This document shows positions 34,187-59,806 of a DNA stretch of 64,000 nt, piece after piece. Numbering within the stretch: the first letter of the stretch is position 1; every line of letters begins with the position of its first letter. Made by a program: the position numbers and the translations under genes. This DNA comes from Planctomycetota bacterium (GTDB lineage: Bacteria; Planctomycetota; GCA-002687715; CAIWVZ01). The stretch is from NCBI GenBank assembly GCA_044222185.1, contig JBGANV010000001.1, positions 2,192,975 through 2,256,974 of the forward strand. The letters run 5' to 3'. The notes below the pieces were generated by a model, which worked only from the letters and a program-made list of their open reading frames with translations, did not search any database and was not told the origin of the DNA.

Positions 34187-34523
34187 CTCATTCCTCCACC
34201 GGGGCGGGCAGAGGGATCGCCGTCGCGATCGGCAGCCCGTGACGCCGACGCCGCCAGGCGCTCGCCGAGATCCACGAAAGGCGACTCCCGTCTCACCCGA
34301 GGCCGCGAGGTCGCGCCCGCACCGCTTCCCCGACCGCGCGTCGCCTCGACGGATCCGCAGTCGACACGATCGCCTTCGACGGCGCCGCGCCCCAAATCAC
34401 TGGACCGGCCTCGACTCGATCTGTACTCTCGCCTCCGAACTCCCCGACCCGAGGCCTCGATGCGGTGATCACTCCTCCCAGGCCTCGCCGTAACCCACGA
34501 AGCCGTAGGCGACCCTCTCAACG

Positions 34524-35756
34524 ATGAATTCCATCCGAACCACTCTGTGTCTCTGTCTTGCCGCCGCCCTCACGATGGCGCAGGCCCCGTCGAACGACGA
34601 ATGCGTCTCGGCGATTCCCGTCACCAATGGGCAGACGATCGCCACGAACGTCGGCGCGACGAACTCGGTCGGATTCGCTGGGAGTTGCATCCCAGGCGAG
34701 TCGGACGTCTTCTTCAGCTATCTGGCGACGGCTCCCGGCCTCGTCCACGCATCGCTGTGCCAGACTCCAGGCAACCCGTCGGACATCAACGACAGCGTCA
34801 TCAACGTGTACTCGGGAGGCTGCGCCGGCGCCGAGGTCTCCTGCAACGACGACAACTGCGGGCTGCTCTCGAGTACGAGCTTCAATGCCGTCGCGGGCAC
34901 CACGTACATCATCCGCGTCGCCGGCTATTCGTTCTTCGACACGGGCACGTTCATCCTGGACGTTCAGCCCGCCGGACCGCCGCCCGCCAACGACACCTGC
35001 CTGAACGCGACGATCGTCGGCGACGGCACCGTGAACGGCGACAACACGAACGCGACGACCGAGCCGGGACTTCCGCTCGAACAGTGCGGCTTCAATCCGA
35101 CGAACGACGTCTGGTACCAGTACTACAACACGAGCAACTGCTACTGGAACGTCACGGCGAGCCTGTGCCCGACCACCGCGCCCGCGATCGACAGCATGCT
35201 GCGGGTGTTCACGGGCACCTGTGGCAACTTCACCGAAATCGCCTGTAACGACGACTTCTGTGGGCTCATCTCCGAAACTTCGTTCATCCTGGGCCCGGGC
35301 CAGAGCGCGTTCATCGCCGTGGCGATCTACAACGACTCGGGCGGTGGCCCGTTCGGCCTCACGCTCTCCCATGGGACGGCCGTGGCGCAACCGGTCGGCG
35401 CGTCTTGCCCCATCGGCGGGCCGTCGCTGTCGTCGGACGCACCGATCCTCGGTGGGACCGTGACGATCACCGTCGCGAACGGGACACCGGGCGCAGCGGG
35501 AACGATGTTCTACGGAGTCGGCGCGCCCTCGCCGTTCGTGTTCCTCGGTTGCTCGGTCTACATCGACCTCGCGACGCTCCAGCCGCTCCTGAACTACGTC
35601 ACCGATGCCGGCGGCGGTTTCCAGCTCGTCGCTCCGCTGCCGAACATCCCGGCGCTCGACTGCGTCCGCGTGATGCTGCAGTCGGCCCACTTCGGGACGC
35701 TCACGCCGAACGGGTTCGAACTCACCAACGGCCTCGACGCTCAGCTCGGATACTGA
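34524..35756 (+). CDS. Secreted Cys-rich protein: two tandem 'NDxC' beta-domains plus conserved C-terminal domain
   Basis: Signal peptide. Two ~125-aa repeats (PSNDECVSAIPV...SCNDDNCGLLS and PANDTCLNATIV...ACNDDFCGLIS). C-terminal domain ending LPNIPAL...LQSA...LTNGLDAQLGY. Confidence 0.8.
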   Translation: MNSIRTTLCLCLAAALTMAQAPSNDECVSAIPVTNGQTIATNVGATNSVGFAGSCIPGESDVFFSYLATAPGLVHASLCQTPGNPSDINDSVINVYSGGCAGAEVSCNDDNCGLLSSTSFNAVAGTTYIIRVAGYSFFDTGTFILDVQPAGPPPANDTCLNATIVGDGTVNGDNTNATTEPGLPLEQCGFNPTNDVWYQYYNTSNCYWNVTASLCPTTAPAIDSMLRVFTGTCGNFTEIACNDDFCGLISETSFILGPGQSAFIAVAIYNDSGGGPFGLTLSHGTAVAQPVGASCPIGGPSLSSDAPILGGTVTITVANGTPGAAGTMFYGVGAPSPFVFLGCSVYIDLATLQPLLNYVTDAGGGFQLVAPLPNIPALDCVRVMLQSAHFGTLTPNGFELTNGLDAQLGY

Positions 35757-46521: not shown

Positions 46522-49485
46522 TCATTGTGCGGAGACGATCAGGGCCGCCGTCATCGCGCCGAGGGCGCCGCTCGGGTTCTGGATGAACGCCTGGACTCCC
46601 ACGGCAAAGCCGTAGAGGTTCGGATCGATTGGAATGGGCACGGGAAGCACTGCGGTTCCGACACCGCCGGCACCGGCATGCGTCGCGGACGGCACGAGCA
46701 GGTCCGGCGAGATGATCAGTTGACATCCGCTCAGGCCGTAGACACCGAGATCGAGCGGCAAGGACGAGCCTTGCCAGTTCGTCGTCGATGTACCGAGCAG
46801 CCACGCCATCGGCTGGCCGGCCACCGCCGAGCCGACGACGAGCCCGAACCGTGGGTTCCCCGACAGCACGGATGGCGGCCCCCCGATCGTGAGGAGTCGT
46901 GGAACGCGACCGTTCACGGCGGGGCAACCGGTGCCGAACTCCGCCGTACCCGAAGCGAACCCCGGGGCCGACAGCAGGACGACACGTCCGGCGCTCGATG
47001 GGAATCCCGTTCCGGCTGGGATCACGAGGCCTGGGGCGCCGACGGCCACTTCGACGAATCCGTCTGAATCGACGTCCCCCGCCGATGCGACGGCGAATCC
47101 CATGTCGGCGGCGGAGCCCGTCGGCACGAACGCGTCGATCAGAAGGCCGGTTGCACCCGAGTAGGCATGAACGCTGGACTGCTGCGGGGTGCCGAGGAAC
47201 CCTGGATTCCCGGCGACGACGTCGCCCACGCCATCTCCATTCCAGTCCCCGACGGCCGCGTGGGAGGCGCCGAACCCCAGCGGTCCCACGATCTGTCGGA
47301 GGATCGCTCCCGTGGCTCCCGAGAAGAACACCAGGGCACCCTGGGACGGCGACGTCGACGCCAGGCCCGCTGCGAGGTCCGTGATCCCGTCGCCGTCGAC
47401 GTCACCGGGCGCCGCCAACGCGATGCCGAGGATCGAAGACTGCGCCGACGGAGGCGCGATCAGCGTGCGGATGAGGGAACCACCGTTCGATGAGTAGAGC
47501 CGGATGACCGTCCCCGTCGTCGTGGGCGAAGGCGCGCCCAGGCTCACGGCGATGTCCTCCTTCCCATCGCCGTCCACGTCGCCGGCCGACGCCAACGTCA
47601 TCACGTCGAAAAGAGGCACGGACGCCGCAGCGACGTTGATCGTGAACAGCAACACCCCCGTGAGTCCGGAGTGGACCTCGGTACGAGCGGGCAGGGTGGT
47701 GCGCGCGACGGCGCCCGCGACACCGATCACGAGTTCGCGATGCCCGTCGCCGTCGAGGTCCGAGATCGTCGCCAGGGCAGCGCCGAATCCGTCGCCGCTC
47801 GTCGATCCCAAGATGGAGTACACGAGGGCTCGCGTCGCGCCGTCGAAAACACTCACGGCGCCCGGCCCGTCGATGGGAGCGCCGGCACGCGGCGCACTCG
47901 CCGCGAATTCAGGAATGCCGTCGCCCGTCACGTCGCCGATAGACGTCAGAGCGAAACCGAAGGTCTCCGATGCGGTGGTCCCTGCGATCTCGGCGGCGAT
48001 TGCGCCGTTTGCGCCGGAGAGGATGGAAACGCGGCCCGCGTTCCCGAGTTCGGAGGGGTTTCGGAATGGACTGCCGATCAAGAGGTCCGGAATGCCGTCA
48101 CCTGTCAGATCGCCGCCGAGTGCGACGGTGTGGCCGAACGCGTCCTGGCCCTGGTCCGCCGAGAGGTCGAAGCGAACGACGGGGCTCGGCCCGCCACGAA
48201 CACAAACGAGTCGCCCATCGTTCAGGCCGGTCTGTGTTCCGATTCCCGCGACGACGAATTCACCGATCCCGTCGCCCGTGAGATCCGTGGTGCCGAGCGC
48301 CGTGACGCCGACGGCCGCGGCCCCCGGCACGACGATCGACCGGATCCGAGCACCGGATGCGCCCGAGTGCACGTGGATCGTCTGCGTCGTTGGCGCCGTC
48401 GCGATCCAATCGGGCACGAGGTCGCCATTCTGGTCGCCGACGGCCGCGAGCCCGAGGCCGAATCCATCACCAGGTGTCGGGTTGACGATGGACTGGATCA
48501 GCGTTCCGGTACGGCCGCTGATCACGTCGACGGAAGTCGTCGGTGTGGCACCGACCACGTTCACGCGCAGCGCGATGAAGTCGCGTGCGCCATCGGAGTT
48601 CCGGTCGTCGATGGCGGCGAACGACGGAGGCACGAACGGCGCCGCGATGGCGGAGAGCGACGCGGTGTGGAGCAACGCCCCCGTCGCACCCGAGATCGCG
48701 TCGATCCGCTGATCGACGCCGTAGAGGATGTCCGGGAAGCCATCGGTGTTGACGTCGCCGGGACACTGGAGCGAGACCGTGAAATTCGGCCCCGCAACGG
48801 ATCCCAGAAACTGCCGGATCAACGCACCGCTGGTGCCCGACAGCAAGTAGGCTCGCGGGGTGATCGGGGTCGGCGCGTTCGGAACGCCGCCGCTCCCACT
48901 CAGCGTGAAGTACCGGCCGGGATCCGCAACGACGAAATCGTCCTTCCCGTCGGCATTGACGTCGCCCACGTTGCGAACGACCGCACCAAACGCGGTCGTC
49001 GCGGTGGCGACGGTGGGTTGGCTCAAGACGGCGCCGGTTGCGCTCGAGTGGATCGTGCAGCGACCGAAGCCGGCGCCGGTCGGTTGCGGTGCCCCCACGA
49101 CGATGTCGCGCTTGCCGTCGCCGTCGAGGTCCGAGATCACGGCTACGGACGCACCAAAGCACGCGCCGGCGAGCGTAGCGGGTGGGAGAAGCGATCGAAT
49201 CAAGTGCCCATCGAGACCTGAACGGATCTGCACGCGCGACGGCACGGCCGACGCAATGAAGTCCGGTGCCGGGCAGCCGATGACGAGGTCGGCGACGCCA
49301 TCGCCGTCAAGGTCGGGGATCGACGCCACGTCGGCACCGATGTCCGTGAGGACGGACCCCGCCGGATTCACGTCGCGAATGACCGACAGTTGGGAGATGC
49401 CGAACGTCGAGTGGGCGATTGCGACGAGGAGGGTCGCAAGGGCCTTGGCTCCTGGACCGGCCGCCGAGCGTCGTTGGGGTTTCAT
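46522..49485 (-). CDS. Large secreted FG-GAP (integrin-alpha-like) repeat protein with conserved C-terminal domain
   Basis: Signal peptide and more than ten repeats of FG..(V/L)...GDxxGDGxxDxxxGAP. C-terminal GCP...LPLDL...GC...PIPIDPNLYG..VQAF...MTAAL. Start uncertain (49485, or up to 49629). Confidence 0.88.
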   Translation of the reverse strand: MKPQRRSAAGPGAKALATLLVAIAHSTFGISQLSVIRDVNPAGSVLTDIGADVASIPDLDGDGVADLVIGCPAPDFIASAVPSRVQIRSGLDGHLIRSLLPPATLAGACFGASVAVISDLDGDGKRDIVVGAPQPTGAGFGRCTIHSSATGAVLSQPTVATATTAFGAVVRNVGDVNADGKDDFVVADPGRYFTLSGSGGVPNAPTPITPRAYLLSGTSGALIRQFLGSVAGPNFTVSLQCPGDVNTDGFPDILYGVDQRIDAISGATGALLHTASLSAIAAPFVPPSFAAIDDRNSDGARDFIALRVNVVGATPTTSVDVISGRTGTLIQSIVNPTPGDGFGLGLAAVGDQNGDLVPDWIATAPTTQTIHVHSGASGARIRSIVVPGAAAVGVTALGTTDLTGDGIGEFVVAGIGTQTGLNDGRLVCVRGGPSPVVRFDLSADQGQDAFGHTVALGGDLTGDGIPDLLIGSPFRNPSELGNAGRVSILSGANGAIAAEIAGTTASETFGFALTSIGDVTGDGIPEFAASAPRAGAPIDGPGAVSVFDGATRALVYSILGSTSGDGFGAALATISDLDGDGHRELVIGVAGAVARTTLPARTEVHSGLTGVLLFTINVAAASVPLFDVMTLASAGDVDGDGKEDIAVSLGAPSPTTTGTVIRLYSSNGGSLIRTLIAPPSAQSSILGIALAAPGDVDGDGITDLAAGLASTSPSQGALVFFSGATGAILRQIVGPLGFGASHAAVGDWNGDGVGDVVAGNPGFLGTPQQSSVHAYSGATGLLIDAFVPTGSAADMGFAVASAGDVDSDGFVEVAVGAPGLVIPAGTGFPSSAGRVVLLSAPGFASGTAEFGTGCPAVNGRVPRLLTIGGPPSVLSGNPRFGLVVGSAVAGQPMAWLLGTSTTNWQGSSLPLDLGVYGLSGCQLIISPDLLVPSATHAGAGGVGTAVLPVPIPIDPNLYGFAVGVQAFIQNPSGALGAMTAALIVSAQ

Positions 49486-49934
49486 CCCATCCGCCCTTGC
49501 GATCATCGCGCCGGCGTTGCGGACCAGTCGGTTCACCCCCGCGCCGCCGCGATCGTGTGCCGCCGCTCGCGGCGACCGTGCCAAATCGAGCCATTCCCCG
49601 GGCGGATTCGCTCCTTCGCACGGTGCCACGAGTCAGCCACGGTCGGCCCTCTGCCCCGGCCCCGCGTTCATCGAGAGCGGGGTCGGCCGCCAGAATTGGA
49701 CGACGCGCCACGAGTCGGAGACCCGGTCGCGATCGTCCTCGAATCCTGCGAGTGCCGTTCGATGGCGCGGCGCCGAGGCCTCCGCGGCCCGCGTCCAGGC
49801 TGGACGGAGCGGCTCCCGGACGCGCCCCCTCCGCCCACGCGCCGCGTGCACGCGTCAAGCGGCGCAGTGTGCAGGCTCAGGCGACGCACGCTCCGGTGAG
49901 GTTCGCGTCGCCAGCGGCCGCCGGCATTCGCGAA

Positions 49935-52895
49935 CTACTGCGCGATCACCGTCATCCCGCCCGTCATCGCGCCCACGGGTCCCGTCGAGTTGGCTACGAA
50001 TGCCTGCGCAAGCACCGCGAACCCATAGAGCTGGGGATCGAGGGGAATCGGAATGGGGAACGCAGCGATGCCAACTCCCCCGGCGCCACTTCGCGTCGTC
50101 GTCTCGACCACGATGTCGGGAGAGACGAGGAGCTGGCACGACCCCATCCCGTACGCACCGAGGTCGAGCGGAAGTGCGAGCCCCTGCCAGCTGGTGAAGG
50201 ACGCGCCCAGCAACAACGCCGCAGGTCGATTCGCCTCGGCGGCACCGATGACGAGACCGAACGCCGGGTTGCCCGTGAGCACGGATGGCTCGCCGCCGAT
50301 GGCGCGGAGCGTCGGCACGCGACCGTTGGAGGCAACGCACCCGGCGCCAAACGGCGGGGTCCCCACGCCGTTCCCGGCGGACGACAGGACTACGACCCGG
50401 CCCGCAGTCGGGCTCAGCGCGCCACTCAAACCCAGGACGATCCACGGTGCCCCCACGGCGAGTTCCGGGAAGCCGTCACGATCCAGGTCGCCGCAGGGCG
50501 CGAGCGTCAGGCCCAGATCGGAGAGGCCCACGGCGCCGTGGAATCCGCTGAGCGCGCTTCCATCCGCGCCGGAGAAGACGGTGACTCCAGGATTGACCAT
50601 CGTGTTCGTGATCGCGATCGTCCCGACGCCGACGTCGGTCACGCCGTCGCCGTTCCAGTCGCCGACGGCCGCGACCGCAGCACCGAAGCCTGCCGGGCCC
50701 GACAGCGTGCGGATCAGCGCGCCCGTCGCGATGGAGATGAGCGCAACGGTGCCGGGAGCGCTCGTGATGTACCCCGAGAGGCCGACGGCGAGGTCCGCGA
50801 GCCCGTCCCCGTCGACGTCGCCCACGTTGGCGAGCGGCACGCCGAGCGCCGCCCAAACTCCCTGGTTCGAGGCGCTGAGGGTGCGGATCAGGCCTCCGCT
50901 GATGGGCGATCGAACGTCGATCGTGGCCGACGTGCCGGGGGATGCGACGCCACCGCACACGGCGATGTCCTCCTTGGCGTCACCGTCCTGATCTCCGACG
51001 ACGGCGAGCGTCAGCGCTTGGGCCGATCCCGGGCCAGTCGTCACGGTGAACGGCGGCGACAAGACGGCGCCCGTGGACCCGGAACGGACCTCGACGAGGG
51101 CGGCACCTCCAGACGTCGCTGGAACGGAGCGGCTTCCGATCACGAGATCCTGGAGACCGTCGCCGTCGACGTCACCGATGGCCGCGAGCGTCGCACCGAA
51201 TCCGCCGCCCGCGTTCGAACCGACGACCGTGTAACGGGGCACCCGCGTCCCGCCGTCGAAGACGATGACCTCTCCAACCGGCCCTGCGGCCGTTCGGAAG
51301 TTCGGGGCGCCCGCGGCGAACTCCGGAATGCCGTCGCCGCTGACGTCGCCGATCGACACGACCGAGTGGCCCAGGTTCCCACCGACCTGTGTTCCGGTCA
51401 CTTCCGCGACGACGAGTCCGGTTGCGCCCGAGACGAGAGCCACGGCCCCGGCATCGGCGCGCTCGGAGGGGTTCGCGCCCGGGCTTCCCGCGAGAAGGTC
51501 CGGGATCCCATCGCCCGTGAGATCGCCCGCGCTCGCAAGCGAACGCGCGAACGCATCCTGGCCGCGGTTCGATGCGACGTCGAATCGGACGGCCGGCGCG
51601 GAGCCGCCACGAATGGCGACGAAACGCGGCTCGACGACGCCGCTCGCGATGCCGTATCCACCGACGGCGAAGTCGGCAACGCCGTCGCCGCTCAGATCAC
51701 CGGTTCCCAGCGCCACGACGCCCGCGACGCCGGCGCCCGGCACCTGGATCGTGCGGATCCGCGAGCTGGTCGCTCCCGAGTACACGTGAATGGATCCGGT
51801 GCCGGGCGCCGTCGCGATCCAGTCGGGAATCCCGTCACCGTTCTGGTCGCCCACTGCGGCGAGCCCGAAGCCTGCCTCGTCTCCGGGCGTCACGTTCGCA
51901 ATCGAGTTGAGCACGACGCCCGTGCGACCACTCAGGATGTCGATGACTTCGATGGAACCCGTGGGCGTCGACGTGGACCTTCGCCGCACGAACTCACGCG
52001 CGCCGTCGCCGTTCCGGTCGTCGATGACGGCGAAGGACGAATAAGAGAATGGAGCGTACACGCTGGTGGCCTGCGTCGAGTACAGGTTCGCGCCCGTGGC
52101 TCCCGAGATGGCGTCGATCCTGTGGTCGATCGCATAGAGGATGTCCGGGAACCCATCGCCGTCGAGGTCGCCGGGGCACTGCAGCGCCGACGTGAAATTC
52201 GATCCCGGCACGGTCTGCACCTGACGCAGAAGTCCTCCCGTGAAGCCCGATGCGAGAAAGGCGCGCGGCGTGATCGGCGCGGAGTAACCGGGCGTTCCAC
52301 CACCGCCGGACAGAGTGAAGTAGCGGCCCGGATCTGCGATCACGATGTCCAGGCGACCGTCGCCGTTCACGTCACCGATCGTGCGCACGACGGCGCCAAA
52401 CGCCGAGGTCGCGCCTGGGAACGCCAGAGTGAAGAGGACGGACCCGGTGGCGCTCGAGTGCATCGTGCAATGTCCGGCGACGGATCCGTTCGGGCGCGGG
52501 CTCCCGACGGCGATGTCAGGCTTGCCGTCGAAGTCGATGTCGGAGATGACGCTGACGGAGGCCCCGAAGCACGCACCGTTCAGATTCGCGGGCGGGAGGA
52601 TCGTCCGAATGAGCGCACCGGTCGCGCCCGATCGAAGCTGGACCTGGCTCACGCCCAGGATTGGAGTCGTCGCGAGGTCGGGGCAACCAAGAACGAGATC
52701 GGCCACACCGTCGCCATCGAGGTCGGAGATGACGGCCGCGTCGGCGCCCACGTTGGGCGTCAGCGCGACGGTGCGGACGAGGTCATGAACCACGGTGGCT
52801 TGGGAGCGACAGAGCGTCGACACGATGGCACACGCGAGCAGCGCGCCGACACGACGGCCGAACGACCGAGACACCGACGTTGGGGTTGGATTCAT
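49935..52895 (-). CDS. Large secreted FG-GAP repeat protein, tandem paralog of 46522..49485
   Basis: Collinear shared motifs (DGVADLVxGCP, GACFGASV, DPGRYFTLSG, LQCPGD, GDLTGDGIPDLL, NGRVP, LPLDLG) and the same C-terminal domain. Confidence 0.88.
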   Translation of the reverse strand: MNPTPTSVSRSFGRRVGALLACAIVSTLCRSQATVVHDLVRTVALTPNVGADAAVISDLDGDGVADLVLGCPDLATTPILGVSQVQLRSGATGALIRTILPPANLNGACFGASVSVISDIDFDGKPDIAVGSPRPNGSVAGHCTMHSSATGSVLFTLAFPGATSAFGAVVRTIGDVNGDGRLDIVIADPGRYFTLSGGGGTPGYSAPITPRAFLASGFTGGLLRQVQTVPGSNFTSALQCPGDLDGDGFPDILYAIDHRIDAISGATGANLYSTQATSVYAPFSYSSFAVIDDRNGDGAREFVRRRSTSTPTGSIEVIDILSGRTGVVLNSIANVTPGDEAGFGLAAVGDQNGDGIPDWIATAPGTGSIHVYSGATSSRIRTIQVPGAGVAGVVALGTGDLSGDGVADFAVGGYGIASGVVEPRFVAIRGGSAPAVRFDVASNRGQDAFARSLASAGDLTGDGIPDLLAGSPGANPSERADAGAVALVSGATGLVVAEVTGTQVGGNLGHSVVSIGDVSGDGIPEFAAGAPNFRTAAGPVGEVIVFDGGTRVPRYTVVGSNAGGGFGATLAAIGDVDGDGLQDLVIGSRSVPATSGGAALVEVRSGSTGAVLSPPFTVTTGPGSAQALTLAVVGDQDGDAKEDIAVCGGVASPGTSATIDVRSPISGGLIRTLSASNQGVWAALGVPLANVGDVDGDGLADLAVGLSGYITSAPGTVALISIATGALIRTLSGPAGFGAAVAAVGDWNGDGVTDVGVGTIAITNTMVNPGVTVFSGADGSALSGFHGAVGLSDLGLTLAPCGDLDRDGFPELAVGAPWIVLGLSGALSPTAGRVVVLSSAGNGVGTPPFGAGCVASNGRVPTLRAIGGEPSVLTGNPAFGLVIGAAEANRPAALLLGASFTSWQGLALPLDLGAYGMGSCQLLVSPDIVVETTTRSGAGGVGIAAFPIPIPLDPQLYGFAVLAQAFVANSTGPVGAMTGGMTVIAQ

Positions 52896-52908
52896 GGCGT
52901 GCCGGGTT

Positions 52909-52924
52909 TGCAACGCCCGTGCCG
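52909..52924 (-). promoter_or_regulatory. Candidate sigma54 (-24/-12) promoter
   Basis: Minus strand CGGCACG-GGCG-TTGCA immediately upstream of the FG-GAP ATG at 52895. Confidence 0.4.
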
Positions 52925-53151
52925 TGCCGTGTCGGCGGAGGACTCAACCATTGGGCCCGTGGCGAGTTCCGCACGGGCGGGTTGCCCGATCGCGTCGCCC
53001 TGCGGATCGCCAACGCGCAAGGCCCGAGTCGGCGGTGTGCGATCCAGCACGATCACGGACGCGGAGTCGCCTGCCGGCGCTACGCGAACGCACCGCGCGC
53101 GACGACGGTCACCACGAGAATCTTCCCGCCGCCTGGCGTACTTCGCGCGTC

Positions 53152-54705
53152 TCAGTTCGCGAGGACGACGGTCTGCGCATTCGAGATCGTCGCGATCCCG
53201 AGCGACGCTCCTGGCGAGAGCGTCACTCCGGCGAATGCGATCGACAGGCCGACGATCGAGGGGAGGTTGGGCACGTTGACGGTCGCGGTCGCACGGCCCT
53301 GATTCGACAGCAGCCCCTGGAACCCGGAGAAGACCCCGAGCCCGCCCGGCGTCGTCGAGATGGTGAACACCGGATCGACCACTCCGGGAGCGACCTCGAT
53401 CACCAACGGAATCACGCGCGCATCCGGAAGCGTCGTGCCCGGCGTCGCGGACGACGCCGCCGCGAGCACAAACCCAAGCGTCGCGTCGGCGGGAACGTCG
53501 AACATGAGGGTGAAGGTCGTCCCGATCCGTGGCAATCCCTGTCGCGCGAGCGTCGCCGTCGTGAGTGCGATGCCGAACCGTGAACCGGCGGCGTCGATCG
53601 CGACGACGTCGTGATCGAGGTCGGCGTCCGCATCCACCGCGAGCAGACGATCGGTGGCGAACCCCACGGGAATCACGACCTGCTGGGGTGCGAGCCCGGC
53701 GGGCGCACCGAGGAACACCTCGAACTGGTTCGCGCCACCCGTGCCGAGGACCAGATCCTGCGACCCGTCGCGATCGACGTCGATCACGGCGACGCTCTTG
53801 AGCGCACCGCCTGGCGTGCCGCTGTAGAGTCCGACCCCGGTCGGCGTGAACGTGCCGGCGCCGTCGCCGGAATAGAGCAGCATGGCGCTTGGACTGAACG
53901 TGGAACTGGCGAGGACGACCACGATGTCGGGGTTGGGATCGCCGTCGACGTATCCGACGCGGACGTCCTCGAACGCGGCTCCCGTCAGAGCGAGCGTCGC
54001 CGGCGCGGAGAACCCCCCGATGTGATCGTTGGCGTGAAGGAAGAGTCCCTGGCCATTTCGACCCACGAGGATGTCGAGCCAGCCGTCGCCGTCGAGGTCC
54101 GCCACCGCGATCTGGCCCGGGACGTTGATGGCATTGGCGGCGGTCCAAAGTACGGTCGTCGCGTAGCTGCCTGCCGGGCTCGCCATCGAGACACGCACGC
54201 TTCCTCCGGTCGGCGTCACGCTCGCGAGGGCGAGGTCGGGCCGACCATCCTGGTCGAAATCGGCGGTGACCATGCGCCGGACGGACACACCCACCGCAAT
54301 CGCCGTGGCCGCCGTCCAGACTCCCGGAGCGAGGGACACGAAGGGTTGGATCAGGCCGGTCGTCGCACCGACGAACACGTCGGGAATGGGATCGGCGTTG
54401 ACGTAGTCGATGGCGATGCAGGTGGCGGCGGGTGTCCCCGCGAGCACGACGTAGGGCACGAACCCGCCATTTCCGTTCCCGATCCGCAGATCCACGTTCC
54501 CCGACTGCGCGAGGAGGATCGCCACGTCGGCGATTCCGTCCTGGTTGAAATCCGCGCTTGCGACGTCGATCGGTTGACCTGCCGTTGCGCTCGTGCCGTT
54601 GACCGACAGGAGTGGTGACTGGGCCGACGCGTCGGCGTGTCCCAAGGCCAAGCTCAGAAGAACGACCAGCCCCCGCGCACCGCACACCGCAAGACTCCGG
54701 ATCAT
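53152..54705 (-). CDS. Secreted FG-GAP/VCBS repeat protein with related C-terminal domain
   Basis: Signal peptide (HADASAQ), about seven ADFNQDGIAD / ADLDGDGWLD type repeats, C-terminal PRIG...VPNLPSIVG...ISNAQTVVLAN. Confidence 0.85.
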   Translation of the reverse strand: MIRSLAVCGARGLVVLLSLALGHADASAQSPLLSVNGTSATAGQPIDVASADFNQDGIADVAILLAQSGNVDLRIGNGNGGFVPYVVLAGTPAATCIAIDYVNADPIPDVFVGATTGLIQPFVSLAPGVWTAATAIAVGVSVRRMVTADFDQDGRPDLALASVTPTGGSVRVSMASPAGSYATTVLWTAANAINVPGQIAVADLDGDGWLDILVGRNGQGLFLHANDHIGGFSAPATLALTGAAFEDVRVGYVDGDPNPDIVVVLASSTFSPSAMLLYSGDGAGTFTPTGVGLYSGTPGGALKSVAVIDVDRDGSQDLVLGTGGANQFEVFLGAPAGLAPQQVVIPVGFATDRLLAVDADADLDHDVVAIDAAGSRFGIALTTATLARQGLPRIGTTFTLMFDVPADATLGFVLAAASSATPGTTLPDARVIPLVIEVAPGVVDPVFTISTTPGGLGVFSGFQGLLSNQGRATATVNVPNLPSIVGLSIAFAGVTLSPGASLGIATISNAQTVVLAN

Positions 54706-54940
54706 GAAGCGCCTCCGTGCGCGAGTGTATCCGAGGCCGATGGCTCTGCCGGCGAGTCGGCCTCCGATCGGACATGCTCGGCCGCTCTGTCGGACAGGTC
54801 GCGCGGCGGCCGGTCGGCGGAGGCCGGCCGCGTTGATGCAAGCGGAGTGGTGGGGTGCGCGGCGGCGAACGACTTGCAGCTCGGTTGGAGCTGGACGCTG
54901 TGGGAGGCCCCGTGTGGAATGCAGCGCAGGAGTCGCGAGC

Positions 54941-54975
54941 AAAAAAAGAGAGGGATGCCTTTCGACATCCCTCTC
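54941..54975 (-). terminator. Rho-independent terminator
   Basis: Minus strand GAGAGGGATGTC-GAAA-GGCATCCCTCTC followed by TTTTTTT, downstream of the 158-aa gene. Confidence 0.88.
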
Positions 54976-55117
54976 ACCCCCATTCGTCGGCAGCGCGAGT
55001 GCTGCCGGCGTCTTGTCTGATCGCGATGCGCCGCCGTGAAGTTGGTTGGAAGCGGCGCCTGTGAAAGTCAGCCGGCACGCGGGGATGTGCCGGCCGAGCC
55101 GTCCTTGGAGCGAAGGT

Positions 55118-55594
55118 TCAGCGGATCGTTCCGACGAGCGCGCTGGTGAAGTTGTGCGTCGTTCGGGTCGCGTTCGTCACGTAGGCCTGGACGACGAACT
55201 GCACACCGAGGAGCGACGGGTCATTCGGGAAGGTGTATTGCATCACCACCGACTGTCCCGGGAAGAGCCCACCCGTCAGCGGGCCGCCCTCGGAGAAGAT
55301 CTGGAACGACCGGTTCTGGTTGATCAGCAGCGTGCCGCCGATCCCCGCCATGGTGTGGGGAACGTTGTCCCACGGCGCGTACTCCTGCCACACGGTGCAG
55401 AAGTAGCCTTCCACACCCACGGCTCCGGCCTGGATCTGGAAGATCGAGGTGGTCCCAAGCGAGAAGCTGTCGGTCGGCGTCAGGTCGACCAGCCGGCAGT
55501 TCTGGACTCCACCCATCTCCACGCTCTGGGCGACGGCGGGCAGGGTGACGAGGACGAGCAGGGCGGACACGACGATCAGGGGGTTGCGACGCAT
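55118..55594 (-). CDS. Small secreted protein made up of a signal peptide plus the conserved C-terminal domain only
   Basis: AAGGAG RBS, signal peptide ending AVA-Q, ends FPNDPSLLGVQFVVQAY...FTSALVGTIR, with its own terminator. Confidence 0.8.
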   Translation of the reverse strand: MRRNPLIVVSALLVLVTLPAVAQSVEMGGVQNCRLVDLTPTDSFSLGTTSIFQIQAGAVGVEGYFCTVWQEYAPWDNVPHTMAGIGGTLLINQNRSFQIFSEGGPLTGGLFPGQSVVMQYTFPNDPSLLGVQFVVQAYVTNATRTTHNFTSALVGTIR

Positions 55595-55807
55595 GGCTCT
55601 TCTCCTTGTTTCATCGAGGCGCTCGCGACATTCGCGGTCGTCTCACACGAACACCGTGTGGCGGAGAGGAGGTCCATTACCGGGCGGGAAAAAAAATCCG
55701 GGAGAGCGAGGATCGGCCGGTAGAACGCCCCCGGGGAACGGGCGCAACCTCGGGTCCAGGCGAGCCGGAGGTCTCGCCGGCCGGCCAGCCGCAGGCTGGC
55801 GCTCCGG

Positions 55808-56854
55808 TTACAGGCGGGCCGCCTGGTCGGGTCGGGACATGGCGATCAGGAACGGATCTTCGGCCTGAAGTGCGGCGAAATCCGCTTTCGACCGCATCCC
55901 CCGCCAGGATTCGCGGATCAGGACCTGCGCCGTGGCGCCCCCGAGGGTGTCCCCCGGCCCGAGCAGCACGAGGTGGTCCGGGGCGAACTCTCGAAGGGCC
56001 ACGCGCACGGCCGCCGAGTAGTCGAACGTCTCCACGATCTGGGTGCCGAGCGTGTAGTCGAAGATCGCGCCGCCGGAGGCGATCCGCGGACGCCAGATGA
56101 CCCCGCGACCGTCGATCAGGGGGACGGCGGGCGCACCCCACGGCAGGGACGACAGCTCGGCCTGGGCGCGCGTCGCCACGCTCTCGAGCAACGGCGAATG
56201 GAACGCCGCGTGCCCCTGGAGCTGGAACGGGTACTCGCGCTCGCCCAGTTTCACCTTGGGGAGGCGCGCCAGGAGGAACCGCACGCCCTCGGCGTCGCCC
56301 CACAGCACGGCGAGTCCCCCGAGCCGGATCGACCAGCCCGCGCGATGCCCCGCCGCGTTCGCGGCGGCGAGGGTCGACTCCACGTCGGTGAGGCGCGCGG
56401 CATCGTGGCGCCAGTCGCCATCGACGATGGGGTGAATGACCTGCCCGCCGATGGGCCCCCCGCGCTGCATGCCCCCCATGGTGTCCGCGATCCGGAACCC
56501 CGCCTCGAAGTCGAACACGCCACCCACGTGGAGCGCCGTGTACCAGCCCATGCTGTTGCCGATCACGGCGACGACGTCGACCTTCGAGCGGTCGAGCCTC
56601 GCGGCGTCGGCGGCCGTGCACGTGAAGATCAACGCGCCCGCGTTCTCGCCGATCATGTGGCGCGCGCCGAATTGCGGGGCGTCGTCCAGCTCGCGCAGCG
56701 AGACGTCGCCGTTCTGGCTGCGCACGCCGTCGGCATACGCCACCATCTCGTCGATGCGACGCATCACGTCGGCGGATGCGGGCCGCCGGAGATATCCCAG
56801 CTCGGTCTTCGTGTAGGTGCCGCGGCCGGGGCATATGAGGACGACTCGTTTCAC
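55808..56854 (-). CDS. FabD-like acyltransferase (ACP S-malonyltransferase family, divergent)
   Basis: ICPGRGTY (instead of FPGQG), nucleophile motif GNSMGWY, HAAFHSPLL, LGPG. GTGA overlap with the E1 gene. Confidence 0.8.
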   Translation of the reverse strand: MKRVVLICPGRGTYTKTELGYLRRPASADVMRRIDEMVAYADGVRSQNGDVSLRELDDAPQFGARHMIGENAGALIFTCTAADAARLDRSKVDVVAVIGNSMGWYTALHVGGVFDFEAGFRIADTMGGMQRGGPIGGQVIHPIVDGDWRHDAARLTDVESTLAAANAAGHRAGWSIRLGGLAVLWGDAEGVRFLLARLPKVKLGEREYPFQLQGHAAFHSPLLESVATRAQAELSSLPWGAPAVPLIDGRGVIWRPRIASGGAIFDYTLGTQIVETFDYSAAVRVALREFAPDHLVLLGPGDTLGGATAQVLIRESWRGMRSKADFAALQAEDPFLIAMSRPDQAARL

Positions 56855-59127
56855 CGCGCGCCTCCGCTGGGCTCACCCTCGCGCATGAGCGCGAGGCTCG
56901 CCTCGACGATGCCCGACTCGGAGGGCAGCACGTGCGTCCACGCCGTACCGAGCGGGACGTAGGTGTCCTCGCCCGCATAGCGCGCGATGCGCGGCAGGTC
57001 CGGTGAGAGGCGCTCGACGAGCGCCGTGATCACGCCCTCGGAGAGTCCACCGGTGCGCCGTCCCTCGTCCACCACGAGCACGGAGCCGGCGGCCCGAGCC
57101 TCGGCGCAGATCGTCCCCTCGTCGAGCGGGTTGAGCCAGCGCAGGTCGACGACGCGCACCCGCAGCCCGTGCTTCTGCTCGAGCGTGCGCGCCGCCCGCA
57201 GCGACAGCCACACGCCGTTGCCGAACGTGATGATCGCCAGATCGGCCTTCGTCGCATCCCCGAGGACTCGCGCCTTCCCGAAGGGGACGGCCCAGCCCGG
57301 AGCCGGGAACCGCGACATCCACAGACCGTCGTCCTGGTCGTAGAGGTCCTTCGTCATGAACAGGGCGATGGGCTCGAGGAAGAGGACGACGCGGCCGTCG
57401 ACCTTCGCGAGCGCCATGGCGGTCCGCATCATGCCCACGGCTTCGTCGCCGCGGCACGGAGCGCAGATCACCACGCCAGGCACGTCGCGCAGGGCGGCAA
57501 TGCTGTTGTCGTTGTGGAAGTGTCCGCCAAAGCCCTTCTGGTATCCGAAGGCGTTGATGCGGACGACCATCGGGTTCCGGTACTGCCCGTTCGAGAAGTA
57601 CTGGAGCGACGCCGCTTCGCCGCGGATCTGATCCTCGGCGTTGTGGTAGTAGGCGAGGTATTGGATCTCGGGCACGGGCAACATGCCGAGGTGCGCCGCG
57701 CCGATGGCGATCCCGAGGATCGACTGCTCGTCGAGGAGCGTGTCGAACACCCGCTCGGCGCCGGCGGACGCCTGCAGCCCGTCGGTCGCGTGGTAGACGC
57801 CGCCCTTCTTCGCCACGTCCTCGCCGAAGACGATCATCTCGGGGTACTTGGCGAGCATGTCGCGCATCCCGAGGCTCGTCATCACGGCGAAGTGGCGCGG
57901 GCGAGTGGAGGCTTCCGGGAGCTTGGTGGCATCGCCGCCGAAGAGGGGCAGACGCGCGTCGTCGTAGTCGGCGCGCTCGGCCTCAGCCTTCACGCGCTCC
58001 GGCGAATGGGGCGCGAGCGGGGCCATGACTTGCGCCGCCGACGTCAGCATGGGACGCCGCACGACCTCGCGCGCCGCCGCCGCCACGCGGGCGCGAACGC
58101 TCTCGTAGGTGTTCAAGAGATCGGCACGCGTCGCGATGCCGGCCTCCAGTGCGAGCCGGCAGGATTGGATCAGGGGATCGCGGGCCTCGACGACCTCGAT
58201 CTCCTCGCGCGAGTGGTACTCCGTCTCCACGTCGCTTCCCGCGTGCCCGAGCATGCGCACCGTGCGCACGTGGAGGAACGTCGGCTGCCGCTTCTCGCGG
58301 CACCATCGCACGGCGTCCAGCGACGCGTCGTAGGCGTCCGAGAGATCGAGACCGTCCGCTTGCACGTAGGCGAGCCCGTTGCGGTCGCCGTACGCATGCT
58401 CGATCCAGCCGGGAGGTGTGTCGACGGAGATTCCGATGCCGTTGTCTTCGCACACGAAGAGGATCGGCACGGGCGTTCCCTGGAACCACCACCACAACGC
58501 CATGTTGATCGCGCCCACGGCGGTCGAGTGATTGGCGCTCGCGTCGCCGAACGAGCACACGATGACGGAGTCGTCGGGAATCGGCAGCGGGAGCCCGAGC
58601 CGCGCGGCCTTCTCGAGGGCGAGGGCAGCGCCCACGGCTTTCGGCACCTGGGACGCGATCGTGCTCGTCTGCGGCGGGATCCACAGCGGGACGCTTCCGA
58701 ACACCTTGTGACGACCGCCCGCGATCGGGTCGTCGGCGGACGCCACGAGGCCGAGGAGCACGTCGAAGATCGGCGTCTGTCCCGGCACCTGCTTGGCGCG
58801 CTCGCAGAAGAACGCGCCCGAGCGGTAGTGCAGGAACGCCATGTCGGTCGGGCGGAGCGCCGCGGCGACGGCAGCGTTCCCCTCGTGGCCCGTGCTGCCG
58901 ATCGTGTACCAGCCCTCGTTGCGCGCTTTGAGGTTTCGGGCCTCGAAGTCCAGGTGCCGCGACTGGAACTGCGAATCGATGAGGTCGAGGAGGCGGCGTC
59001 CCGTGAGGTGGGTCGAGCCTCCCACGGGCTCGTCCAGGTCTCCGTCGCGCGCATCGCGACCGGTCCATTCCTCGATGAATTTGGCGAGATTCCGGTCGAC
59101 GATCGTGGCGCGGTTGACGGCGGACAT
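56851..59127 (-). CDS. Fused E1 alpha/beta TPP-dependent 2-oxoacid dehydrogenase (BCKDH-like)
   Basis: YTIGSTGHEG, HYRS, GGRHKVFG, FGDASANH...EDNGIGIS, GHAGSD, FGEDVAKKGGVY, DTLLDEQ, EIQYLAY, GGHFHN, DLRWLNPL. Confidence 0.9.
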   Translation of the reverse strand: MSAVNRATIVDRNLAKFIEEWTGRDARDGDLDEPVGGSTHLTGRRLLDLIDSQFQSRHLDFEARNLKARNEGWYTIGSTGHEGNAAVAAALRPTDMAFLHYRSGAFFCERAKQVPGQTPIFDVLLGLVASADDPIAGGRHKVFGSVPLWIPPQTSTIASQVPKAVGAALALEKAARLGLPLPIPDDSVIVCSFGDASANHSTAVGAINMALWWWFQGTPVPILFVCEDNGIGISVDTPPGWIEHAYGDRNGLAYVQADGLDLSDAYDASLDAVRWCREKRQPTFLHVRTVRMLGHAGSDVETEYHSREEIEVVEARDPLIQSCRLALEAGIATRADLLNTYESVRARVAAAAREVVRRPMLTSAAQVMAPLAPHSPERVKAEAERADYDDARLPLFGGDATKLPEASTRPRHFAVMTSLGMRDMLAKYPEMIVFGEDVAKKGGVYHATDGLQASAGAERVFDTLLDEQSILGIAIGAAHLGMLPVPEIQYLAYYHNAEDQIRGEAASLQYFSNGQYRNPMVVRINAFGYQKGFGGHFHNDNSIAALRDVPGVVICAPCRGDEAVGMMRTAMALAKVDGRVVLFLEPIALFMTKDLYDQDDGLWMSRFPAPGWAVPFGKARVLGDATKADLAIITFGNGVWLSLRAARTLEQKHGLRVRVVDLRWLNPLDEGTICAEARAAGSVLVVDEGRRTGGLSEGVITALVERLSPDLPRIARYAGEDTYVPLGTAWTHVLPSESGIVEASLALMREGEPSGGAR

Positions 59128-59275
59128 GGGCGGAAGTGTACGTGCGCAAATCTCGGTTTCCGAGCCGCGCTCGGCGGACGGACAGCCCTTACGCCCCGCG
59201 GCTGTCGCCGAAACGCGGCCGAGCGTGTAAAACGGGCGCCGCGATTGGCGGACGCCGCTTCGCACGACGCTCCTT

Positions 59276-59806
59276 ATGACACATGAGGCCACGACCGACG
59301 GTTCGCCCGCGAGCGCTGCCACACCGCGCACTCTGTTCCTGGTTCGCCACGCGGATGCCGCCGCCATCACGGGCGGCGGGTCCGATTTCGACCGCACGCT
59401 GACCGACGTCGGGGAGCGGCAGGCCGTGGCCATCGCCAGCCTCCTCGGATCGCGCCCCATCGACTACGTCGTCTGTTCCTCGTCCAATCGCACACGCGGG
59501 ACCGTGGCCCCGCTTCTCGCGCGCCTCTCTGCCCCGCTCCCGACGATCGCCTACGACAAGCGTGTCTACGACGCCGCCCTGAGTTCGCTGCTGCGCGTGA
59601 TCGAGTCCATTCCCCCGTCGTCGAAGATGGCCGTTCTCGTGGGCCACAACCCCGGCATGCTCGAAGTCCTCGCAACGCTCGTCGGCGACCCCTCGCCCCG
59701 CAACGGTTTCCCCAAGGCCGCCGTCGCCGAGCTCTCGGTGCCCGGGGATTGGTCGGCGATCCAGACGTTCCGCTGCCAGCTCGTGAAGTTCACCGAGCCA
59801 GCGTAG
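59276..59806 (+). CDS. sixA: Phosphohistidine phosphatase SixA family
   Basis: LFLVRHA, DFDRTLT..G, SSSNRTRGT, LVGHNPG, FPKAAVA. Confidence 0.85.
   Translation: MTHEATTDGSPASAATPRTLFLVRHADAAAITGGGSDFDRTLTDVGERQAVAIASLLGSRPIDYVVCSSSNRTRGTVAPLLARLSAPLPTIAYDKRVYDAALSSLLRVIESIPPSSKMAVLVGHNPGMLEVLATLVGDPSPRNGFPKAAVAELSVPGDWSAIQTFRCQLVKFTEPA

Follow-up and report, generated by a model that had tools for sequence, protein, structure and literature searches.

This study concerns a window of 64,000 nucleotides (nt) from a Planctomycetota bacterium (contig JBGANV010000001.1, positions 2,192,975 to 2,256,974), by which we mean the whole stretch of DNA that was analysed, and within it a minus-strand gene for a protein of 158 amino acids (aa), here named P0001 (Table 1). 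As an earlier note on this DNA had described, P0001 consists of a signal peptide and one domain only, and its gene has an AAGGAG ribosome-binding site (RBS) and an intrinsic terminator; open reading frame (ORF), sequence and terminator scan agree on this. The GC fractions at codon positions 1, 2 and 3 (0.61, 0.45 and 0.91) are coding-like, the C-terminus reads ...FPNDPSLLGVQFVVQAYVTNATRTTHNFTSALVGTIR, and a public protein collection contains a sequence identical to P0001. Read by eye, the N-terminus (MRRNPLIVVSALLVLVTLPAVA followed by QS) has the three regions expected of a Sec signal peptide (n, h and an AxA-type c-region), and Q23, the first residue of the predicted mature protein, is invariant across six stand-alone proteins of this kind, while the AlphaFold2 (AF2) model has a helix over residues 5-20 in this region, with low predicted local distance difference test (pLDDT) values. 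All four stand-alone paralogs in this genome, P0001 included, carry AAGGAG or AGGAG at the same place. The terminator, about 143 nt beyond the stop codon, was the sole minus-strand site in a scan of 54600-56000 that gave 2 sites over both strands, the mean for shuffled sequence being 0.6 sites for both strands together. Judged from these signals, the terminator parts the P0001 gene from the FG-GAP genes downstream, and the gene is its own transcription unit. A plus-strand terminator-like hairpin (54985-55010) also lies between the P0001 gene and the first FG-GAP gene; no plus-strand gene ends there, and its only contribution may be to the 3' structure of the minus strand.

The three minus-strand genes downstream of the P0001 gene encode FG-GAP proteins, and for the first of them 54705 is the likely start, since the longer ORF would begin within the T tract of the terminator. 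The earlier note had held that P0001 lies directly upstream of three genes carrying the same domain. A tail profile was built iteratively from the tail of the 1035-aa protein over the six-frame ORFs of the genome (61,510) and converged on 212 ORFs with a median length of 621 aa, in which the tail domain ends no more than 5 aa from the stop codon in 175 cases and more than 60 aa before it in 29. This genome-derived profile matches the C-termini of all three FG-GAP proteins (E 4.6e-8 for 53152-54942, 4.8e-10 for 49935-52913 and 3.8e-11 for 46522-49629), and P0001 as well (E 4.8e-9). Compared pairwise by BLASTP, P0001 aligned with two of these neighbours over only the last 40 residues (E 4e-4) and the last 32 residues (E 0.004), and showed no similarity to the third. 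The three neighbours therefore do carry the tail domain, but because the pairwise alignments cover only 32-40 residues, its sameness with the domain of P0001 holds at the superfamily level only.

At that level, the relation was examined with the profile of iteration 4, which comprised 122 tails with no stand-alone sequence among them, and which matched P0001 with an independent E-value of 1e-7 over profile positions 19-126, the order of segments and strands being kept. With hhalign, the alignment of P0001 and its close relatives (the S-type alignment) matched that of the 122 tails over 103 columns (E 6.5e-5, probability 64%), and profile-profile comparison with small alignments covered the last 51 columns (E 8.4e-5, probability 60%). 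The signature P-x-(D)-P-x-L-x-G ... Q-A near the C-terminus of the tails is found in P0001 (FPNDPSLLGVQFVVQAY); in the generic-tail alignment P110, P113, G117 and Q123 show little or no variation, and G130 and Q136 are invariant in the S-type alignment. The cysteines of P0001 are Cys33 and Cys66, and the position of the middle cysteine of the generic tails reads IGGTLL; Cys33 may correspond to the first cysteine of the generic tail, although the profile alignment begins after it. If P0001 were an unrelated small beta-sandwich with only a short convergent C-terminal motif in common with the tails, the short BLASTP alignments, the silence of the third neighbour, the hhalign probabilities and the differing cysteine positions would be accounted for. 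This is nevertheless quite improbable, since the whole domain matches, strand by strand, a profile built without P0001, the fold class is the same, and P0012 (162 aa), which a search with P0001 retrieved, is placed among the generic tails in the tree. Scans of Pfam and NCBIfam gave no family at E ≤ 1 for P0001, its relatives or the tail regions of the neighbours. We hold it highly likely that the P0001 domain is homologous to the tail domains and stands in a divergent branch of them; it is probably a divergent member, here called S-type, of an uncatalogued C-terminal end-domain superfamily of exported planctomycete proteins.

Structure prediction by AF2 gave an all-beta sandwich both for P0001 (pLDDT 79, predicted template modelling score (pTM) 0.71) and for the FG-GAP tail of the 1035-aa protein (pLDDT 92, pTM 0.85), and the VIA-align top-50 lists of the two models have 12 entries in common. 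Judged from these models, the two predicted folds belong to the same generic immunoglobulin (Ig)-like class. Foldseek gave no match in the PDB at E ≤ 0.001 for either model, its weak rows including chitin-binding sandwiches and others like carbohydrate-binding modules (CBM), and PDB sequence profiles gave chance rows only (E 0.22 and 0.25). A homodimer prediction with two copies of residues 24-158 scored 0.00 against a mark of 0.42, which speaks neither for nor against binding.

Four stand-alone copies are present in the genome (100, 82, 78 and 65% identity to P0001), 157-158 aa long, with open frames that span 174-216 aa, and two longer ORFs (404 and 428 aa) have the S-type domain as their tail. 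A word-indexed search returned six proteins out of 331 candidates, all of 157-158 aa, four of them from this genome and two from metagenomes, the latter being 158-aa orthologues with 75% and 72% identity. An exhaustive search of 1.84 billion representatives gave only seven proteins with E ≤ 0.001. Besides P0001 itself, these comprise three that end in the domain (310-373 aa), one fragment of 90 aa, and two small proteins, one of 163 and one of 162 aa. Within the family, S-type matches occurred in 4 of 5 genomes, counting this one; the class yielded 4 among 23, and the phylum sample, for which five candidates were scored per genome, 4 among 401. The four genomes were the same each time, and in the three that belong to a sister genus the matching domain forms the tail of an open frame of 356-411 aa. 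For comparison, 38 of 201 sampled genomes match the generic tail profile. In a tree of 26 domain sequences, which took in 9 of the 22 generic tails of the generic-tail alignment, the S-type branch has a support of 100/98, and the six stand-alone proteins fall outside a 97/99 clade made up of the fused forms and the 163-aa P0008, whereas the 162-aa P0012 groups with the generic tails. The S-type members other than the stand-alone ones are tails of 310-411-aa proteins, plus one of 163 aa. Two aromatic-rich loops, WQEYAPWDN and SEGGPLTGG (in general form SEGxLTGG), are strictly conserved and specific to the S-type, being missing from generic tails.

Table 1. Features of the P0001 locus, its downstream neighbours and related genes of the S-type and of the second tail type (positions are those of the window unless a contig or locus is named).
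Feature	Position	Strand	Basis or remark
Coding sequence of the 158-aa stand-alone S-type end-domain protein (P0001)	55118..55594, stop codon included	-	ORF, GC content at third codon positions (GC3), paralog dN/dS
Signal peptide, residues 1-22, MRRNPLIVVSALLVLVTLPAVA	55529..55594	-	Sequence reading; predicted cleavage before Q23
Mature beta-sandwich domain, residues 23-158 (S-type end-domain)	55121..55528	-	
Ribosome-binding site AAGGAG	55602..55607	-	7 nt ahead of ATG
5' leader block, GGTAATG ... CACACGGTGTnnGTG ... second GC hairpin	55620..55681	-	Common to 3 of 4 paralogs
Leader copies at the other two paralogs	L002 1410-1500; L003 1975-2065	+; -	
GC-rich hairpin with weak T tract	55071..55094	-	24 nt past the P0001 stop codon
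Intrinsic terminator	54941..54975	-	12-bp stem (54975-54948), 4-nt loop, T7; terminator scan
FG-GAP/VCBS protein, 517 aa from likely start MIRSL	53152..54705, frame open up to 54942	-	Divergent tail domain, last ~158 aa
FG-GAP protein, 992 aa	49935..52913	-	Tail domain in last ~140 aa (49938-50372)
FG-GAP protein, 1035-aa ORF, likely start 49485	46522..49629	-	Tail domain in last ~140 aa (46525-46959), model pLDDT 92
Fused S-type relatives, 310-411 aa	e.g. C16:97123-98325 (L014 9124-10326)	+	Also L015-L017, P0007, P0010, P0011
Different-tail proteins	C16:98566-106990 and C6:756309-759194		

The stand-alone form probably arose through loss of cargo, because its nearest sister-genus relatives are tails of 356-411-aa proteins. 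In the S-type alignment, the 'AQ-SVEMG' of P0001 aligns with the 'GN-SWEMG' that directly precedes the tail in the fused proteins (which themselves begin, in mature form, with 'AQSFEC'), and this correspondence between 'SVEMG' and 'SWEMG' is what an in-frame loss of cargo would leave. The most likely origin would thus be an in-frame cargo loss from an S-type tailed protein, in which the signal peptide and the linker ...S-(V/W)-E-M-G were retained, and which would have been followed by amplification to four dispersed copies. It had been proposed that a longer, passenger-bearing gene in relatives would mark P0001 as a truncated remnant; a truncation derivative it probably is, given the length of the sister-genus relatives, but a conserved and amplified one. 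That it is a non-functional remnant of a longer gene is hardly credible, in spite of those longer relatives, against four copies whose mature parts show dN/dS of 0.175-0.289 at dS of 0.51-1.26 (pairwise, Nei-Gojobori), six proteins of the same length that all keep an intact signal peptide and have 75 invariant columns, an RBS and terminator of its own, and RNA-labelled contigs that cover the gene. The signal-peptide part is less constrained, with dN/dS above 1 in the three closest pairs.

The codon adaptation index (CAI) of three of the paralogs is 0.71, 0.75 and 0.80, corresponding to the 93.8th, 98.1st and 99.9th percentiles among 4321 crude gene calls, with 22 ribosomal-cluster genes (median 0.67) as reference, and that of the most divergent paralog is 0.53 (8th percentile). 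Listed runs that contain the stretch number 20 and come from 13 studies, which dealt with activated sludge, bioreactors and wastewater. Among these, four RNA-labelled runs from three studies have contigs on 53000-58000 which fall mainly on 55033-55602: two 151-nt contigs with 1 difference each in run X18, two contigs each with 0 differences in runs X9 and X10, and 240 nt with 17 differences in run X20, the last probably from a related strain. Elsewhere in 53000-58000 there were two 151-nt pieces at 56729-56965 (5 differences each) and short loose-ended fragments; 53152-54942 and most of 55672-56500 are without RNA-contig cover, which is no evidence of silence there. The RNA-labelled contigs are taken as a hint of transcription and no more. 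P0001 is encoded by an intact gene that, from its signals, is monocistronic; purifying selection acts on it, and RNA-labelled libraries contain it.

A 5' leader block is common to the three paralogs with high CAI. It lies about 85 nt ahead of the ATG, is composed of GGTAATG, some 16 nt, CACACGGTGTnnGTG and a second GC hairpin, and ends about 25-30 nt before the RBS; the pattern GTAATG-N(10-22)-CACGGTGT occurs at only these three places in the 7.08-Mb genome. RNAalifold predicted two hairpins from the three leaders, with 0 compensatory pairs, and the covariation that had appeared in hairpin 1 was rejected as the product of a register shift. Around the P0001 gene, Rfam gave no credible family (one row, E 0.96). 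The GGTAATG...CACACGGTGT block could be a promoter, an operator or a transcribed leader.

With a cargo-free product and a maintained gene, as judged from purifying selection, codon adaptation and RNA-labelled cover, the domain must have a role of its own. This bears out the earlier proposal that the domain does something without cargo, the four paralogs being under purifying selection and three of them having high codon adaptation. The specific tie to FG-GAP adhesins that had been drawn from the same locus was not confirmed. The generic tail-domain ORFs nearest to the four paralogs are 0, 6.4, 9.2 and 73 kb away, where random places in the genome have a median distance of 12.2 kb, with 8% of them no farther than 200 bp; the profile used for this linkage was that of generic tails, with the second tail family of the genome outside its cover. 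A tail-domain gene thus adjoins only one of the four paralogs. A search for S-type loci in metagenomes and genome contigs yielded one metagenome locus and 0 loci in genome contigs, and at that locus the orthologue stands 12 nt after a molybdopterin oxidoreductase gene and before an unrelated ORF. Given the distances of the paralogs and the context of the metagenomic orthologue, the position upstream of three FG-GAP genes is not a conserved feature, and the expectation that stand-alone copies would be conserved beside tail-bearing genes fails for three of the four paralogs and for this orthologue.

These data also bear on the idea that a fibre, pilus or S-layer-like assembly has the domain as its major subunit, with tailed proteins such as the FG-GAP adhesins as minor ones. 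This appears improbable, as a terminator stands between the P0001 gene and the FG-GAP genes, neither three of the four paralogs nor the metagenomic orthologue adjoin a tail-domain gene, and no stand-alone S-type gene was found in the sampled relatives rich in tail-domain proteins. The P0001 model also looks like a closed sandwich in which the last strands are present (residues 147-149 and 152-156, with short N-terminal strands at 25-27 and 34-37), and no missing-strand pilin signature is apparent in its strand list. A related proposal, that the stand-alone S-type is the bulk block of an undescribed surface or floc-matrix assembly into which exported proteins plug non-covalently through their homologous tails, we consider a similarly long shot; if it were true, the tail family of about 200 members would be a 'plug' system and the P0001 gene would encode its matrix.

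A free domain that occupies or tunes the machinery or receptor by which tails are recognised, in other words a decoy, regulator or chaperone, would fit with a superfamily signature motif that is kept without cargo and with a leader common to three paralogs, which may mean common regulation. We find this very doubtful: high codon adaptation and four copies are more in keeping with a bulk protein than with a regulator, the other sampled genomes that have the tail system did not yield the form, and no such machinery is known or stands beside any copy. It is less far-fetched, though still unlikely, that the S-type has left the tail system and become a neofunctionalised soluble binder, a periplasmic or extracellular lectin- or CBM-like protein or small-ligand binder whose role is unrelated to tails. 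The strictly conserved aromatic-rich loops of its own, the restriction of the S-type to one family (4 of 401 phylum genomes, against 38 of 201 for the generic tail), the linkage to tail-domain genes that is not conserved, and the weak chitin-binding and CBM-like Foldseek rows all accord with such a binder.

Among known systems, the P0001 domain was compared with the unnamed planctomycete end-domain itself, to which it is alike in profile homology, in the PxDPxLxG...Q(A) motif, in the Ig-like sandwich and in its occurrence in the same genome. It differs from that end-domain in cargo, as P0001 stands alone behind a 22-aa signal peptide whereas the end-domain forms the ends of longer exported proteins of 350-1500 aa, and it differs from the generic form in its separate branch, its own conserved loops and a cysteine pair at other columns. 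P0001 would best compare to a tail or anchor module that has been freed, and by analogy the C-terminal domains of the type IX secretion system (T9SS) are the nearest described analogue of the tail family. The T9SS domain (Por_Secre_tail, PF18962 / TIGR04183) has no sequence match in P0001 or in the tails of the neighbours; a search of the genome for Por_Secre_tail found none, with the control genomes equally silent, and T9SS SprA_N (PF14349) was not found in the genome, nor in any of 14 control genomes. T9SS tails are cleaved by PorU after export. They are not known to work as free proteins, in contrast with the conserved free copy observed here. RbmA of Vibrio cholerae and BslA of Bacillus subtilis, small secreted biofilm-matrix proteins like Ig or fibronectin type III domains, have no sequence relation to P0001 and the fold matches are generic; the macroglobulin (MG) domains of complement C3/C4/C5 were also counted among the nearest known systems. 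A likeness to the choice-of-anchor L architecture (PF26766) lies in the N-terminal ~230 aa of the fused S-type relatives, for which the ESM Atlas gave clusters of choice-of-anchor L as the closest (score 0.79, a lead only); the cargo of the four fused proteins has no Pfam or NCBIfam match at E ≤ 1, and the stand-alone protein is without such cargo. If this likeness is true, the S-type domain would occupy the position that sorting or anchor signals have in other phyla. Full-text literature searches found no description of P0001 or of the tail domain. One candidate, PMC7783341, was set aside, as it is on PEP-CTERM and irrelevant to the tail domain.

Other cargo-free copies and a second type of tail were also observed. 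P0013 (C1:2105946-2106413, minus strand, outside the window) is a 156-aa protein with a signal peptide, a generic-type domain and 10 cysteines, and its CAI is at the 42nd percentile. A word-indexed search with the generic-tail alignment returned three short proteins, one of which is P0013, while the same kind of search with the FG-GAP tail found none among 77-245-aa proteins; the generic tail also occurs in a few short open frames (137-230 aa) of other genomes. Several proteins of 860-960 aa end in a different tail (e.g. ...LQAVVLDP...LTW...) that the tail profile does not collect, and probably belong to a second end-domain family of the genome; three of these genes stand in tandem directly after the fused S-type gene on contig C16. 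Within the window, a fifth tail-domain ORF of about 410 aa (34509-35756, plus strand) has a generic tail at its end, matching the genome profile with an independent E-value of 5e-24. Upstream of the P0001 gene, a 348-aa ORF (55808-56854, minus strand) has a strong coding signal (GC3 0.91) and no Pfam family, and since it overlaps by 4 nt the stop of a gene for a fused E1 alpha/beta 2-oxo-acid dehydrogenase (56851-59460), the two are probably co-transcribed.

On balance, we prefer the reading, with a rough probability of 45%, that P0001 is an abundant protein which acts through the domain's own surface in the cell envelope or matrix, and that the tail family serves for binding or anchoring rather than as a disposable tag. 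The product would be exported by Sec, carry no cargo and form an Ig-like beta-sandwich of about 14.6 kDa once the signal peptide is cleaved. Its binding surface would be formed by the retained PxDPxLxG...Q motif together with the two loops specific to the S-type, and its target would be a component of the envelope or the matrix, which would make P0001 a free structural or coating module in place of an export tag. By extension, the tail on about 200 cargo proteins would probably be a retained binding or anchoring module rather than a signal that is cleaved and discarded.

Several observations weigh against this reading. The profile-profile support for the homology is only moderate (probability 60-64%), the small alignments reach the last 51 columns only, and the near-invariant cysteine pair of the generic tails (GxGC near the start and GC-x-L in the middle) is at other columns in P0001. 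Beyond this genome, the stand-alone S-type form turned up in none of the other 22 from the class and in none of the other 400 sampled from the phylum; relatives therefore need no general role for it in the tail-domain system. The CAI is partly an effect of GC3 (r 0.43), the percentiles among genes of similar GC3 being 71, 80, 95 and 18, and overall the fourth paralog reaches only the 8th. The RNA evidence is weak, for the runs were chosen for containing the stretch, their contigs show neither transcript level nor strand, and two of the RNA-labelled runs, X9 and X10, are only guessed to be RNA.

What is new here is the stand-alone form of the tail domain and its properties. Its effect on the wider question is limited by the finding of this form in one genus-level lineage only, that of an uncultured host which recurs in activated sludge and bioreactor metagenomes. 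A tail domain common to hundreds of exported proteins is usually taken for a secretion or sorting tag, and a conserved, amplified and apparently well-expressed copy without cargo is the simplest natural test of that view, indicating that the domain is itself active after export. As a small (~136-aa) single-domain protein that is easily expressed, P0001 would offer a handle on what this uncatalogued tail family binds.
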